Source of the DNA: Desulfuromonadales bacterium
GTDB lineage: Bacteria > Desulfobacterota > Desulfuromonadia > Geobacterales > Geobacteraceae
Direction of reading: 5' to 3'
Length of the DNA: 64,000 nt
Assembly: GCA_003712145.1 (NCBI GenBank)
Contig: RHLS01000006.1
Coordinates: 47,253-111,252 of the forward strand
A model generated the notes under the pieces. That model worked only from the letters and a program-made list of their open reading frames with translations, was not told the origin of the DNA and did no database searches. The position numbers and the translations under genes are program-made. The first letter of the stretch is position 1; each line of letters begins with the position of its first letter. Below are positions 42,268 through 49,522 of the stretch, piece after piece.

Positions 42268-44964
42268 ATGAACGCGGAACGGAAACGGCTCGAAAACCAG
42301 CGGAAGGGGAAAGAGAACTGGCGGCTCTGGGGGCCGTACCTGGCGGAGCGGGCCTGGGGGACCGTGCGGGAGGACTACAGCCCCGGCGGAGACGCCTGGG
42401 ACCACTTCAGCCACGACCAGTCCCGCTCCCGCACCTACCGCTGGAACGAGGACGGCCTCGGCGGAATCTGCGACGAGGCGCAGCGGCTCTGCCTCGGCCT
42501 CGCCCTCTGGAACGGCCGCGACCCGATCCTCAAGGAGCGGGCCTTCGGCCTCACCGGCACCGAGGGAAACCATGGCGAGGATGTGAAGGAGTTCTACTTC
42601 TTTCTCGACGCAACCCCCACCCACAGCCTGCTGCGCTACCTCTACAAATATCCCCAGGCGGAGTTCCCCTACGGGCGGCTCGTGGAGGAGAACCGTCGCC
42701 GCTCCCGCCAGGAGCCCCCCTTCGGCCTCCTGGACACGGGGGCCTTCGACGAAAGCCGCTACTGGGACGTGGAGGCGGTCTACGCCAAGGCGGACCCCAA
42801 GACCATCCTCGTCCGGATCACCGCCTCCAACCGAGGACCGGAGAAGGAGACGATCCACCTCCTCCCCACCCTCTGGTTCCGCAACGACTGGTCGTGGGGG
42901 GACGAGGAGGTTGAAAAGCCCCGCCTTGCCGCCGTCGATCCGCCCCCCACCGGCGCCGCCTGGGGGGTGAGCGCCACCCACCCCTCCCTCGGAACCTGGC
43001 ATCTCTACGGCGCGTCTTCCGCAAAACAGCTCTACACCGAGAACGAGAGCAACGGCGAGCGTCTCTGGGGTACGCCGAACGCTTCCCCCTACGTGAAAGA
43101 CGCCTTCCACCGCGCCGTGGTGAATGATGAAGAGGAGGCGGTCAACCCAGCCCTCACCGGCACCAAATTCGCGGCATGGAGCAGCCACGAGGTGGAGCCG
43201 GGGGGCTCGGTGACCATCGACCTCGTCCTGACCATTCCCCCCTACCACTCGCCGACGGAGGAGTACCTCCCCTTCAAGGGGTTCGACAAGACCCTCGCGA
43301 GCAGGCTCAAGGAGGCCGATGCCTTCTACGGCGAGCTCCTCCCGGGCGCCACCCCCGACGATGCGAACATCTTTCGCCAGGCCCTGGCCGGGCTCATCTG
43401 GAGCAAGCAGTTCTTCCACTACGACGTGGCCCGCTGGCTGGACGGCGACGGCGTCCCGCCGCCGGAGGAGCGCCGCTGGGGACGGAACCACCGGTGGCGC
43501 CACCTCAAGGCGGCCGACATCTTCATCATGCCCGACACCTGGGAGTACCCCTGGTTCGCCGCCTGGGACCTGGCCTTCCACTGCGCGGCCATGGCCCTCG
43601 TGGACATCGACTATGCGAAGGAACAGATCGAACTGCTCCTGGACCGGCGCTACCTCCATCCGAGCGGCCAGATTCCGGCCTACGAGTGGTCCTTCGAGGA
43701 CGTGAACCCGCCGGTCCACGCCTGGGCCGCCCTGGAGTGCTACTACATGGAGCAGGACCAGCGGGGAACGGCCGATCTCGCCTTCCTGCGCCGGGTATTC
43801 AACAAGCTCGTCCTCAACTTCGGCTGGTGGGTAAACCGCAAGGACCCGGAGAGCCGCGGCGTCTTCGAGGGTGGGTTCATGGGGCTCGACAATATCTCGG
43901 TCTACGACCGCTCCCAGCCCCTCCCCCCCGGCTTCAGCCTTAAGCAGGCCGACGCCACCGGCTGGATGGCGATGCTCTCCCTGAACCTGGCGGTGATGGC
44001 CATCGAGCTGGCCCGGGAGGAGCCCGAATACGAGGAGATGGCGATCCAGATCCACGCCCAGTTCTTCGCCATCGCCAACGCCATCCACGGCTACACCGAG
44101 ACCGGCGTCCCCCTCTGGGACCCCGAGGACCGCTTCTTCAAGGATGCCCTCACCACCCCCTCCGGCATCTTCTCGCTCCCGGTCTTCTCCTGGGTGGGGC
44201 TCGTGCCGGTCTTCGGCATCGAGCTCGGCTACCCGGAGCAGCTGGAGGGGCTCGACCGCTACAAGTCGTTCCTCGCGAGCCACGCCGGCGGCAAGTACGA
44301 CGGCAACATCGTCTGCGCCTGCCCCCACACCTGCAACGAGCGGGGCGAGCGGTTCTTCTCCCTGGCGCTGCCGGCCAACATCCCCGACATCATGCGACGG
44401 GTCCTCGACTCCGAGGAATTCATCGCCCCCCACGGTGTGCGGGGGCTGAGCAAGATCCACGAACGGGTCCGGCACTTCGGAGACCTTCCGGGGATCGGCG
44501 AAACCATGATCGCCTACGAGCCGGGTGAGTCCCAATCGGCGCTCTTCGGCGGCAACTCCAACTGGCGTGGTCCCATCTGGATGCCGTTGAACTATCTCTT
44601 CGTCCGGGCCCTCGACAAGTGCCACCGCTACCTGACCGAGAGCTTCACCGTGCCGGCCCCGGCCCTTGGAGGAAAAGAGGTGACCCTGGAACAGGCGGCG
44701 GATCTGGTGGCCGAGCGGCTCATCGACATCTTCAGGCGTAACCGCCAGGGGGTACGGCCGGTCTACCCGGCGGAGAGTCCATTCCAGAGTGATCCCCACT
44801 GGAAGGATCTCCTCCTCTTCTTCGAATACTTCCACGGCGACACCGGCCAGGGGCTCGGGGCGGCCCACCAGACCGGCTGGACGGCGCTGGTGGCGAACCT
44901 CATCAAGCGGCGGTACGAGCGGCAGCTCCCCATACGGCCGACGACGATCGAACCGCTGCCGTAA
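42268..44964 (+). CDS. Glycoside hydrolase family 63-like (MGH1-type glucosidase)
   Basis: WGPYLAERAWGTVREDYS, WEYPWFAAWDLAFH, GFMGLDNI, EYFHGDTGQGLGAAHQTGWT. Confidence 0.88.
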   Translation: MNAERKRLENQRKGKENWRLWGPYLAERAWGTVREDYSPGGDAWDHFSHDQSRSRTYRWNEDGLGGICDEAQRLCLGLALWNGRDPILKERAFGLTGTEGNHGEDVKEFYFFLDATPTHSLLRYLYKYPQAEFPYGRLVEENRRRSRQEPPFGLLDTGAFDESRYWDVEAVYAKADPKTILVRITASNRGPEKETIHLLPTLWFRNDWSWGDEEVEKPRLAAVDPPPTGAAWGVSATHPSLGTWHLYGASSAKQLYTENESNGERLWGTPNASPYVKDAFHRAVVNDEEEAVNPALTGTKFAAWSSHEVEPGGSVTIDLVLTIPPYHSPTEEYLPFKGFDKTLASRLKEADAFYGELLPGATPDDANIFRQALAGLIWSKQFFHYDVARWLDGDGVPPPEERRWGRNHRWRHLKAADIFIMPDTWEYPWFAAWDLAFHCAAMALVDIDYAKEQIELLLDRRYLHPSGQIPAYEWSFEDVNPPVHAWAALECYYMEQDQRGTADLAFLRRVFNKLVLNFGWWVNRKDPESRGVFEGGFMGLDNISVYDRSQPLPPGFSLKQADATGWMAMLSLNLAVMAIELAREEPEYEEMAIQIHAQFFAIANAIHGYTETGVPLWDPEDRFFKDALTTPSGIFSLPVFSWVGLVPVFGIELGYPEQLEGLDRYKSFLASHAGGKYDGNIVCACPHTCNERGERFFSLALPANIPDIMRRVLDSEEFIAPHGVRGLSKIHERVRHFGDLPGIGETMIAYEPGESQSALFGGNSNWRGPIWMPLNYLFVRALDKCHRYLTESFTVPAPALGGKEVTLEQAADLVAERLIDIFRRNRQGVRPVYPAESPFQSDPHWKDLLLFFEYFHGDTGQGLGAAHQTGWTALVANLIKRRYERQLPIRPTTIEPLP

Positions 44965-44986
44965 CCTGAAACGGAGACGATCCGCC

Positions 44987-48404: not shown

Positions 48405-48427
48405 CGTTTGCGAAAGGAGATTCTGCC

Positions 48428-49522
48428 ATGAGCACCATGAAAGCCGTTGCCGTCACCCCCGGCGTTGCCCGGAGCGCCCGCCTGATCCAGGTCCCGGTGC
48501 CGGAACTGTCCGCTGACCAGGTCCGGGTAAAGATGATCCGCGTCGGCATCTGCGGCACCGACCTGGAGATCGACCGGGCCGAGTACGGCCAGGCTCCGCC
48601 GGGCGAGGAGGACCTGATCCTCTGCCACGAGAACTTCGGCAAGGTGGAATCGGTCGGCGCAAACGTGAAGGGGATCGCCCCCGGCGACCACGTGGTCGCC
48701 ATGGTCCGGCGTCCCGACGACTGCCCCAACTGCCGCGCCGGCGAGCAGGACATGTGCATCACCGGCAACTATACGGAGCGGGGGATCAAGGGGCGGCACG
48801 GCTTCCTCTCCGAATTCTACGTGGAGTCCCCCGAGTATCTCATCCCCATCCCCCCTGAACTCAGGGAGGTGGCGGTGCTCCTGGAACCGCTGACCGTGGT
48901 CGAGAAGGGGATCCGCCACGCCTGGGCCGCCCAGGAGCGCATGCGGGCCTGGACGCCGCAGCGGGCCCTGGTTCTGGGCGCCGGCCCCATCGGGATGATG
49001 GCCGCGGTGGTGCTGCGGTTGAGGGGGCTGGAGACGATCGTCTACGCCCGCGACACGAGCCCGGTCATCACGGACCGGGTGGCGGCCATCGGCGCCCGGT
49101 ATATCCCCCAGCTGGACGAGAAGGGGGAGATGATCAACCACATCGGCGAGCTTCCCAAGCAGTGCGGGGGCTTCGATTTCATCCTGGAGGCGACCGGGGC
49201 CGAGCAGATTGCCCTGAGCGCCATGCGGATCATCGGCCTCAACGGCATTCTCTGCCTCACCTCGGTCACCGGGAGCGAGAAACCGATGGAGATCTGCCCC
49301 GGCTGCCTCAATCTCGAACTCGTCCTCGGCAACCGGAGCGTCTTCGGCAGCGTCAACGCCAACAGGGTCGACTTCGAGCAGGGGGTCAGGGACCTGGCCG
49401 CCGCCCGGGAGCGGTGGCCCGGCTGGCTCGAAAACGTCATCACGCGCCGCGTGCCGATCGACCGCTTTCGCGATTCCTTCGAGCGGGAGCCCGGCGACCT
49501 GAAGGTTGTGGTGGAATTGTAG
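48428..49522 (+). CDS. Zn-dependent glucose 1-dehydrogenase-like MDR enzyme
   Basis: GICGTD, CHE, RRPDDCPNC...DMC, VLLEPL, VLGAGPIG, GSVNA; resembles archaeal-type glucose dehydrogenase. Confidence 0.8.
   Translation: MSTMKAVAVTPGVARSARLIQVPVPELSADQVRVKMIRVGICGTDLEIDRAEYGQAPPGEEDLILCHENFGKVESVGANVKGIAPGDHVVAMVRRPDDCPNCRAGEQDMCITGNYTERGIKGRHGFLSEFYVESPEYLIPIPPELREVAVLLEPLTVVEKGIRHAWAAQERMRAWTPQRALVLGAGPIGMMAAVVLRLRGLETIVYARDTSPVITDRVAAIGARYIPQLDEKGEMINHIGELPKQCGGFDFILEATGAEQIALSAMRIIGLNGILCLTSVTGSEKPMEICPGCLNLELVLGNRSVFGSVNANRVDFEQGVRDLAAARERWPGWLENVITRRVPIDRFRDSFEREPGDLKVVVEL

Follow-up and report, generated by a model that had tools for sequence, protein, structure and literature searches.

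We analyzed a 64,000-nt stretch of DNA (positions 47,253 to 111,252 of contig RHLS01000006.1, assembly GCA_003712145.1), called the window below, from a metagenome-assembled genome (MAG) of a Desulfuromonadales bacterium. Positions 42268-49522 of its forward strand carry a run of five genes coding for a GH63-like hydrolase, a MIP channel, a VOC protein, a GMC flavoprotein and a glucose 1-dehydrogenase (GDH). Comparisons with other genomes and with metagenome contigs identified this run as a trimmed copy of a widespread gene module. With a probability of about 0.55, the module would free glucose from an endogenous alpha-glucoside and oxidize it without phosphorylation under stress. Glucoside hydrolysis followed by non-phosphorylative glucose oxidation had been proposed in a preliminary description of this DNA, and it is still the best reading of the gene set.

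The first gene (42268-44964) codes for an 898-aa GH63-like hydrolase of clan GH-G, with Pfam matches to MGH1-like_GH (4.4e-21) and Glyco_hydro_63 (7.4e-07). It is followed on the same strand by the genes of the 266-aa MIP channel (44987-45787; Pfam MIP, 4e-30), of a 337-aa VOC protein made of four modules and an N-terminal signal-like segment (45789-46802; two Pfam Glyoxalase/VOC matches, 7.9e-29), of the 525-aa GMC flavoprotein (46827-48404; GMC_oxred_C, 7.5e-19, and GMC_oxred_N, 6.1e-08) and of the 364-aa MDR glucose 1-dehydrogenase of archaeal type (48428-49522; Glu_dehyd_C, 1.2e-51, and ADH_N, 7.9e-20). The five annotations, their strand and their coordinates, as given in the preliminary description, were borne out by the listing of open reading frames (ORFs), the translations and the Pfam matches. 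The intergenic gaps are 22, 1, 24 and 23 nt; with a GMC start at 46839, the choice of the gene callers, the protein has 521 aa and the gap in front of its gene is 36 nt instead of 24. A scan of the + strand of the run found no internal promoter-like or terminator-like sites, and Rfam, tRNA and terminator scans of the window returned nothing relevant.

By ORF and Pfam reading, + strand genes run on beyond 49522 as far as 59225. Genes of this distal part (those of NDH-2, of a YHS protein and of a VTT fusion) also recur beside the module in other organisms; therefore, we treat the five-gene run and the genes from 49549 on as one unit. From the layout, the five genes would open a single long transcription unit on the + strand. 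The five-gene operon described earlier thus stands as to its tight packing, and has to be enlarged as to its extent.

A neighborhood survey of this gene set had been suggested in the preliminary description, and co-occurrence in other genomes was clearly found. The first of two surveys was centered on the GH63-like protein in named genomes (80 loci, partners within 10 kb). At least two partners were present at 8 of the 80 loci and the dehydrogenase alone at 4 more, so that 12/80 loci had any partner. The carriers were Azospirillum, a Thiobacillaceae MAG, two Rhodospirillales or Steroidobacteraceae MAGs, a Vulcanimicrobiota MAG, a Limnocylindria MAG (with all five genes), a Solirubrobacteraceae MAG and a Synechocystis MAG. 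Full or partial sets were present in named genomes of Pseudomonadota, Chloroflexota, Vulcanimicrobiota, Actinomycetota and Cyanobacteriota. The Terriglobia genome of locus L077 (G355) has an 80%-identical GMC gene and a GH63-like copy on different contigs; therefore, the GH63-like genes found in such a search are often not the module's own copy.

The second survey was centered on the VOC protein in metagenome contigs, and the partners were counted on 31 contigs that had at least 2 kb of flanking sequence on both sides. The GMC gene was the most frequent neighbor (24/31), followed by GH63 (18/31), MIP and an archaeal-type 'debranching' enzyme of GDE type (17/31 each), a DM13 protein (12/31), the MDR dehydrogenase (11/31), an SMP-30/gluconolactonase-like protein, SGL (10/31), FMN reductase (9/31) and NDH-2 (8/31). 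In 40 of the 49 contigs holding both, the GMC gene preceded VOC on the same strand at a distance of no more than 400 bp. The GH63 gene followed VOC within 400 bp in 16 of 34 contigs and within 1.5 kb in 26 of 34. The consensus order begins with [GlcG/HbpS-cupin, SMP-30] - DM13 - (NDH-2) - MIP - GMC - (MerA/RclA-like flavoprotein) - VOC and continues after VOC with (FMN reductase) - GH63 - (nucleotidyltransferase) - GDH - GH176-type enzyme, the last being the family to which the 'debranching' enzyme belongs. Gene order varies among organisms; at some loci an SDR-type glucose dehydrogenase stands in for the MDR enzyme, and some VOC loci (L135 and L136, for example) have MIP with no GH63 or GDH gene within reach. 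A mannose-1-phosphate guanylyltransferase-like gene is recurrent in the module and a gene of an extracytoplasmic function (ECF) sigma factor is often near it.

Since the same neighbors recur on dozens of unrelated contigs, we consider the linkage of these genes, as judged from their arrangement, to be far beyond chance. The counts identify MIP-GMC-VOC, and not the GH63 gene, as the tight conserved core, and the module is centered otherwise than the preliminary description proposed. The window copy is trimmed: a search of the host genome for the GH176-type gene, DM13, FMN reductase, SGL and HbpS-cupin found none of them. Some of the Pseudomonadota loci, including that of Azospirillum (L004, L005, L009 and L010), have a DUF2282/MbnB-like/DUF2063/DoxX set adjoining the module, which we take to resemble a bufferin-type copper-binding peptide cluster; a DoxX-NDH-2 fusion was seen in L004.

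The five genes lie on an island of about 19.6 kb (window about 39.63-59.25 kb) which, by DNA comparison, is inserted relative to genomes of the same genus. On the left, synteny with the genus is confined to the feoB/fur side and ends at about 39634; on the right it picks up again at about 59243. In one genome of the genus (G002) the two flanks, fur and the gene at 59.25 kb, are just 80 bp apart, and the island is absent from 11 same-genus genomes. The tRNA and ORF scans saw no tRNA and no integrase at the borders. In a sister assembly, Geobacter sp. GCA_030834625.1 (locus L171), these genes stand in unchanged order at the same feoB-fur site.

A search for an orthologue of the GMC gene came up empty in 60 relatives, of which 11 belong to the same genus, 25 to the same family and 24 to the same order. 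At E<=1e-100 the gene was detected in 3 of 300 other genomes sampled from the phylum; in a sample of Acidobacteriota, 52 of 301 genomes had a GMC match, about 25 of these being high-identity orthologues (E<=1e-100). In a tree of GH63 proteins the island copy falls in a clade (support 100/100) with Pseudomonadota (Azospirillum, Thiobacillaceae, Nitrosospira and Thiodiazotropha), and the two GH63 paralogues of the host genome fall elsewhere. The host genome is a 4.04-Mb MAG, 99.75% complete, with reads from a freshwater sediment metagenome. The window GMC protein has no identical database record; its closest relative is a 94% identical 'GMC oxidoreductase [Geobacter sp.]', the record that led to the sister island. 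A Desulfovibrio-like sulfate reducer was first considered as the host; because dsrA was not found in the host genome and the nearest GMC record is named Geobacter sp., we dropped this idea and call the host Geobacter-like. The conserved site is empty in close relatives and the phylogenetic affinity of the island is foreign; therefore, the comparisons identify the island as horizontally acquired by a Geobacter lineage.

These data bear on the alternative that chance brought the genes together on a mobile island, or that a chimeric assembly joined them, and that they share no function. It could be argued from the G+C content (0.65-0.68 in the island region and 0.59 in the DNA just upstream), from the MAG origin of the genome and from the differences in gene order between organisms. 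However, the same neighbors are found on dozens of contigs from several phyla, both flanks of the island on the contig are syntenic with relatives of the genus, an independent assembly carries this island at the same site and genus-specific repeats lie inside the island. The independent assembly and the repeats argue that the island is not an assembly artifact, and we regard the alternative as close to refuted.

The glucose-oxidizing step is suggested by the dehydrogenase. The GDH protein matches PF16912 with 175.7 bits, and its top four solved relatives are all archaeal glucose dehydrogenases (Haloferax, 8.5e-50; Sulfolobus, 9.6e-41). It shares its family with the enzymes of Haloferax mediterranei (2b5w) and Sulfolobus solfataricus (2cd9), as well as the positions of the catalytic zinc ligands, which are conserved in the alignment at C42, H67, E68 and E153. 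Unlike them it is bacterial; it is only modestly related to them, and of the four cysteines that bind the structural zinc in the Sulfolobus enzyme it has only three. Archaeal MDR glucose dehydrogenases serve the non-phosphorylative or branched Entner-Doudoroff pathway.

The GMC flavoprotein has both domains above threshold (PF00732 and PF05199). Its segments IIGSGAGGG, AHQNGT and AVNPALT align with the Burkholderia enzyme, covering the FAD motif and the C-terminal His/Asn pair. Among solved structures it is closest to the alpha subunit of Burkholderia FAD-dependent glucose dehydrogenase (FAD-GDH; 7.9e-41) and to the large subunit of Gluconobacter fructose dehydrogenase (about 1e-33). A CxxCxxCxxxxC motif is formed by C196, C199, C202 and C207; three of these (C196, C202 and C207) are matched in the alignment by cysteines from the Cys-rich segment of the Burkholderia protein (6a2u), presumably its 3Fe-4S ligands Cys212/218/222. 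The additional C199 gives a ferredoxin-like motif, and the protein may bind a 4Fe-4S cluster. The likeness to the Burkholderia cepacia FAD-GDH (6a2u) and the Gluconobacter fructose dehydrogenase (7w2j) thus extends over the Cys-rich site and the FAD motif. In contrast to those complexes, the window protein is predicted to be cytoplasmic (no signal peptide was found) and has the fourth cysteine. No other member of the module is so strongly conserved: of more than 8000 homologues, each of the top 120 has an identity of 80% or more, and across records named Acidobacteriota, Binatia, Methylomirabilota and Thermodesulfobacteriota the identity is 80-83%.

The MIP channel (PF00230, 105.7 bits) has two NPA motifs, HLNPAV and SMNPAR, that are invariant in its orthologues. 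Its best solved relatives are rice NIP2;1 (9.6e-21) and AqpM (4.6e-19), with AqpZ at 1e-11; the score against the AqpZ equivalog is 70 bits, below the cut-off of 256. No GlpF chain was present among the 47 PDB matches at E<=1e-8. The preliminary description had suggested that an aglycone is released through this channel; for the release of an aglycone of glycerol type we saw no specific support, the protein being NIP/AqpM-like. At its C-terminus is a Cys/His tail, CAKLNHH....RCIF..C, which is predicted to be cytoplasmic. Tails of this type, CAKL(H/N)H-x4-RCIF-x-C, have their cysteines in 33 of 33 orthologues, and the strict pattern C-x2-[LFM]-x-[HP]-x(3-7)-C-x(1-3)-C is kept in 27 of the 33. 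The tail looks like a Cys3-His metal or redox site.

The GH63-like protein scores above both family thresholds (PF22422, 76.3 bits at a cut-off of 27; PF03200, 28.7 bits at a cut-off of 22.4). No signal peptide was found in it, and it is assigned to the cytoplasm. A profile built from 17 family members matches the yeast and Chaetomium GH63 glucosidase I across the motifs WRGPxW...NYL and YE...G.G..H.TGWT. The WD..FH motif is invariant; D434 (AWDLAFH) and E853 (FEYFHGD) are invariant in the 17 members and are aligned with the motifs of the yeast and Chaetomium enzymes. Catalytic roles of the WD aspartate and the YE glutamate in GH63 are known from the literature, the pair in YgjK being D501/E727 (bioRxiv 10.64898/2026.07.01.735942).

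The protein is no equivalog of either of the two bacterial enzymes for which such models were compared. It scores 26.2 bits against the model of the glucosylglycerate hydrolase (GgH), NF047898, over a short stretch only and with a cut-off of 550, and 23.6 bits against that of YgjK, NF007525, with a cut-off of 625. It shares clan GH-G and the signature motifs with GgH of Mycolicibacterium hassiacum, the mannosylglycerate hydrolase (MgH) of Thermus, YgjK and eukaryotic glucosidase I. It differs from them as an 898-aa cytoplasmic protein, about twice as long as GgH, in a separate subfamily of hundreds of members (597 relatives were found).

With cytoplasmic enzymes and no sugar importer on the island, the cell itself must make the glucoside. 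The lack of a sugar transporter and of a kinase, as stated in the preliminary description, holds for the cluster; a glucokinase and glycogen genes are present elsewhere in the genome. The inventory of the host genome (two glgA genes, glgX, the glucokinase gene glk and the phosphofructokinase gene pfk) does not fit the 'presumed non-sugar-user' of that description either. One of the two GH63 paralogues (locus L084, contig C58, 12000-31000) is located between GlgX, scoring 707 bits at a cut-off of 641, and PPK2; the other (L085, contig C58, 31001-50500) is next to a divergent GH13 enzyme. OtsA and the glucosyl-3-phosphoglycerate synthase GpgS were not found above cut-off in the host genome. Because the paralogues adjoin GlgX and GH13, glycogen genes are present, and OtsA and GpgS were not found, the substrate of the GH63-like enzyme here is most likely, on this genomic context, glycogen-derived alpha-glucan oligosaccharides rather than an osmolyte. 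A pairing of GH63 with GH13 was also seen at loci L061, L070 and L078.

The osmolyte alternative deserves a closer look. Here, compatible solutes would be catabolized: the GH63 enzyme would hydrolyze glucosylglycerate, glucosylglycerol or an alpha-1,2-glucoside osmolyte, MIP would vent the aglycone or water, and the glucose would be oxidized. Characterized bacterial GH63 enzymes are mannosyl- and glucosylglycerate hydrolases, and YgjK prefers alpha-1,2 and alpha-1,3 bonds, which we counted in favor of this alternative. A water or solute channel would suit osmotic shifts, and the recurrent mannose-1-phosphate guanylyltransferase-like gene points in the same direction. The 'debranching' partner (TIGR01561), present in L004 (7325-9991) and in about 20 other loci, belongs to the CAZy family GH176. 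The only well-studied member of GH176 is a strict alpha-1,2-glucosidase which acts on kojibiose and not on glycogen, and the authors of that careful study doubt the debranching annotation of the family (bioRxiv 10.64898/2026.07.01.735942). That study also weakens the debranching partner as a proof of a glycogen substrate, for which we had considered it, and the gene is absent from the host genome. On the other hand, the GH63-like protein is far below the GgH equivalog cut-off, is no equivalog of YgjK and has twice the length of GgH; the paralogues adjoin GlgX and GH13; the channel is NIP/AqpM-like, with no GlpF among the PDB matches given above; OtsA and, above cut-off, GpgS were not found; and other genes of the island indicate thiol and redox stress, not osmotic stress. 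We therefore did not retain the osmolyte-hydrolase idea (glucosyl- or mannosylglycerate) of the preliminary description, and consider catabolism of a compatible solute unlikely.

The VOC protein was described earlier as exported. This is supported by a signal-like hydrophobic N-terminus present in the window protein and in 5 of 5 aligned orthologues. Four residues of modules 2 and 3 (H116, E170, H196 and E255) do not vary among 40 sequences, and the protein appears to keep one intact glyoxalase-I-type His/Glu/His/Glu metal site in a pseudo-dimeric chain. In a fold search with its AlphaFold2 model (pLDDT 96) the best matches were the monomeric maize glyoxalase I (PDB 5d7z) and human GLOD4, with E about 1e-15 and TM-scores of 0.6-0.7. 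Zea mays glyoxalase I is likewise a pseudo-dimer in a single chain. In contrast to it and to GLOD4, with identities of 14-18%, the VOC protein is exported to where glutathione is scarce. The score against the lactoylglutathione lyase equivalog TIGR00068 is 49.3 bits, below the cut-off of 120. An extradiol dioxygenase was considered as well and rejected, since His/Glu pairs make up the invariant ligands and the histidine of module 4 lacks conservation. Extradiol dioxygenases also rank under glyoxalase I in the fold search, with poor TM-scores. Among structural neighbors in the ESM Atlas is a cyanobacterial protein of 465 aa in which this VOC fold is fused to an HbpS/GlcG-like domain; therefore, the VOC protein is linked to the HbpS-cupin proteins of fuller modules.

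The properties of the core proteins suggest another explanation, in which two functions share one stress regulon. MIP-GMC-VOC would handle a small neutral alcohol or carbonyl compound and would merely be co-regulated with the oxidation of glucan-derived glucose: the channel would serve uptake or efflux, the Fe-S flavoprotein would oxidize the compound and the exported glyoxalase-like enzyme would convert an alpha-oxoaldehyde. MIP-GMC-VOC is the tightest part of the module, as seen from the adjacency of GMC and VOC in 40 of 49 contigs and from the GMC identity of about 80% across phyla. The 12/80 GH63-centered loci with any partner, the loci L135 and L136, the match of the VOC fold and its metal site to glyoxalase I and the cyanobacterial fusion also agree with such a division. 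However, GH63 directly follows VOC in many contigs (the 16/34 and 26/34 mentioned above), GDH or the SDR-type glucose dehydrogenase is often a member, the solved relatives of GMC are all sugar dehydrogenases, and in the window the five genes are interleaved, in the order GH63-MIP-VOC-GMC-GDH. We regard this explanation as possible but doubtful.

We find it quite unlikely, judging from the predicted features of the three proteins, that MIP-GMC-VOC is an undescribed trans-envelope system of small-molecule redox chemistry, in which a redox-gated channel exports the product of the flavoprotein and VOC makes from it a protective or signaling product. The GMC enzyme would then make a neutral keto-sugar, lactone or oxoaldehyde from storage glucose, and the VOC product could be an antioxidant of reductone type or a sugar acid that chelates metal, for example. 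Where the module is fuller, VOC would be joined by the exported proteins SMP-30 lactonase, GlcG-cupin and DM13.

In the reading that we prefer, oxidation of endogenous glucose, a signal of redox state, oxygen or starvation would act through a PAS kinase and an OmpR regulator, which would activate the operon via three GTGAWT repeats. The GH63-like enzyme would release glucose from an endogenous alpha-glucoside, likely glycogen oligosaccharides, as the paralogue context and the gene inventory suggest. The MDR dehydrogenase, by its family assignment, would convert the glucose to gluconolactone with NAD(P)+. The GMC enzyme would oxidize glucose, a derived sugar, a sugar acid or a small alcohol, its Fe-S cluster would hand the electrons on to quinone or some other acceptor, and NDH-2 would recycle NAD(P)H. 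More speculatively, MIP might pass a small neutral product or water across the membrane, and the exported VOC protein might convert the passed product, perhaps an alpha-oxoaldehyde or a keto-sugar. Because gluconate kinase, lactonase and the Entner-Doudoroff dehydratase were not found, what the cell gains is probably reducing power, redox protection or a protective product rather than assimilated carbon.

Outside support comes from Synechococcus elongatus PCC 7942, where the genes Synpcc7942_1571-1575, annotated as MIP, GMC flavoprotein, glucose 1-dehydrogenase, glucosidase and a debranching-type enzyme, are up-regulated at subjective night (PMC11889915). The authors propose a route from glycogen to glucose to gluconate, with no enzyme known that would lead onward (PMC11889915); the glucosidase annotation in this cluster is also given in PMC6607534. 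By annotation, the same kinds of genes are adjacent there and in the window, and an onward route from gluconate has been found in neither. The two differ in the VOC protein, which is unmentioned there, and in the debranching-type gene, which is present there and absent from the window genome.

Several observations weigh against the preferred reading. Because the studied member of the GH176 family acts on kojibiose, the usual substrate of the module may be an alpha-1,2-glucoside rather than glycogen. The host genome is without the GH176-type partner, DM13, FMN reductase, SGL and HbpS-cupin. An exported VOC protein beside cytoplasmic enzymes is unexplained by simple glucose oxidation. Cytochrome c and Tat hitch-hiker subunits, looked for as partners of the flavoprotein, were not among the identified island genes or the called genes of the sister island. 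As to the gluconate route, the host genome (99.75% complete) gave no match to the TIGR01313 kinase or to SGL lactonase, and only one gene of the IlvD/EDD family; the search covered these three families, with FGGY-type gluconate kinase and 2-keto-3-deoxy-6-phosphogluconate (KDPG) aldolase outside it. The likeness to the Synechococcus cluster is one of annotation, and a control Synechococcus genome matches PF22422 and not PF16912. Since that control genome is without a PF16912 match and an SDR enzyme replaces the MDR enzyme at some loci, the Synechococcus glucose dehydrogenase is probably of SDR type. The source of the DNA is a MAG, and matching reads were present only in metagenome DNA runs. 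Finally, in line with the earlier statement that no characterized pathway with this gene set is known, literature searches yielded no assay or functional study of the module; they returned only the Synechococcus transcriptome remark and the GH176 preprint.

Regulatory elements were found in front of the operon. The first gene of the island (39804-40550, + strand) codes for an OmpR-type response regulator (Pfam Response_reg, 5.1e-31; Trans_reg_C, 4.8e-29), with a copy 82% identical at the same place in the sister island L171. It is followed by the gene of a PAS-PAS histidine kinase (40516-42093, - strand; Pfam PAS_4, PAS_9, HisKA and HATPase_c), divergent from the operon and 81% identical in L171. 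The 174-nt spacer in front of the GH63 gene has three direct repeats, GTGAAT/GTGATT/GTGATT, with an exact spacing of 11 bp (42168-42195, + strand, 73-100 nt before the GH63 start). The double form of the repeat has only one other occurrence in the 4.04-Mb genome, and the repeat block is kept in L171 although the remaining spacer diverged. Sites of the OmpR family are typically direct repeats at helical spacing; therefore, the repeats are a candidate binding site and the adjacent OmpR regulator is its likely reader.

Among the loci examined, the two Geobacter copies are the only ones where the module has this kinase and this regulator beside it. A dedicated regulator of the module was thus rejected, given that the response regulator and the kinase have no association with the module outside these two copies. 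The versions of the module in soil bacteria have the same structural genes, and genes of ECF sigma factors adjoin the module in 8-9 loci. The window differs from those versions in having no ECF sigma gene and in having the PAS histidine kinase, the OmpR regulator and the triple repeat.

The remainder of the island is on the + strand. A DinB-like ORF (49549-50079) starts 26 nt past the GDH stop; its Pfam DinB match is weak (0.0035), and a 180-aa ORF occupies the equivalent place in L171. The Pfam matches of the genes at 50246-59225 identify DoxX, a Transgly_assoc stress protein, an OlsF-like acyltransferase, a CCP/MauG-like heme protein, the YHS protein, the VTT(DedA) fusion, MsrB and NDH-2. 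Between the DinB-like and DoxX genes is a repeat of about 140 bp (50091-50232), similar to miniature inverted-repeat transposable elements or repetitive extragenic palindromes (MITE/REP-like), with 15-bp terminal inverted repeats AGGCTCCTGCAAAAC ... GTTTTGCAGGAGCCT. It has 7 matches in the host genome and many at 83-94% identity in genomes of the same genus. A second family of short repeats, with a G/C-rich hairpin-like core, is seen at 55077-55191 between the CCP-like and YHS genes; it has about 19 hits in the host genome (one at about 15.9 kb of the window) and more in relatives. The L171 island has extras relative to the window, namely a 32-aa ORF and a thioredoxin-like protein between VOC and GMC (9380-9961), as well as a TANGO2-family protein after the DinB-like ORF (13259-14029).

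The module is common, with more than 8000 GMC homologues, a high-identity copy in about 8% of the sampled Acidobacteriota and a presence in at least five other phyla. The GMC identity of about 80% across phyla points to strong constraint. The module joins three unusual proteins, a tailed aquaporin predicted to bind metal, an Fe-S GMC flavoprotein without a cytochrome partner and an exported glyoxalase-like enzyme, and each of them is a good biochemical target. It may explain how bacteria for which sugars are no growth substrate (Geobacter, nitrifiers or, in the dark, cyanobacteria, for example) would gain reducing power from internal glucan without a kinase.

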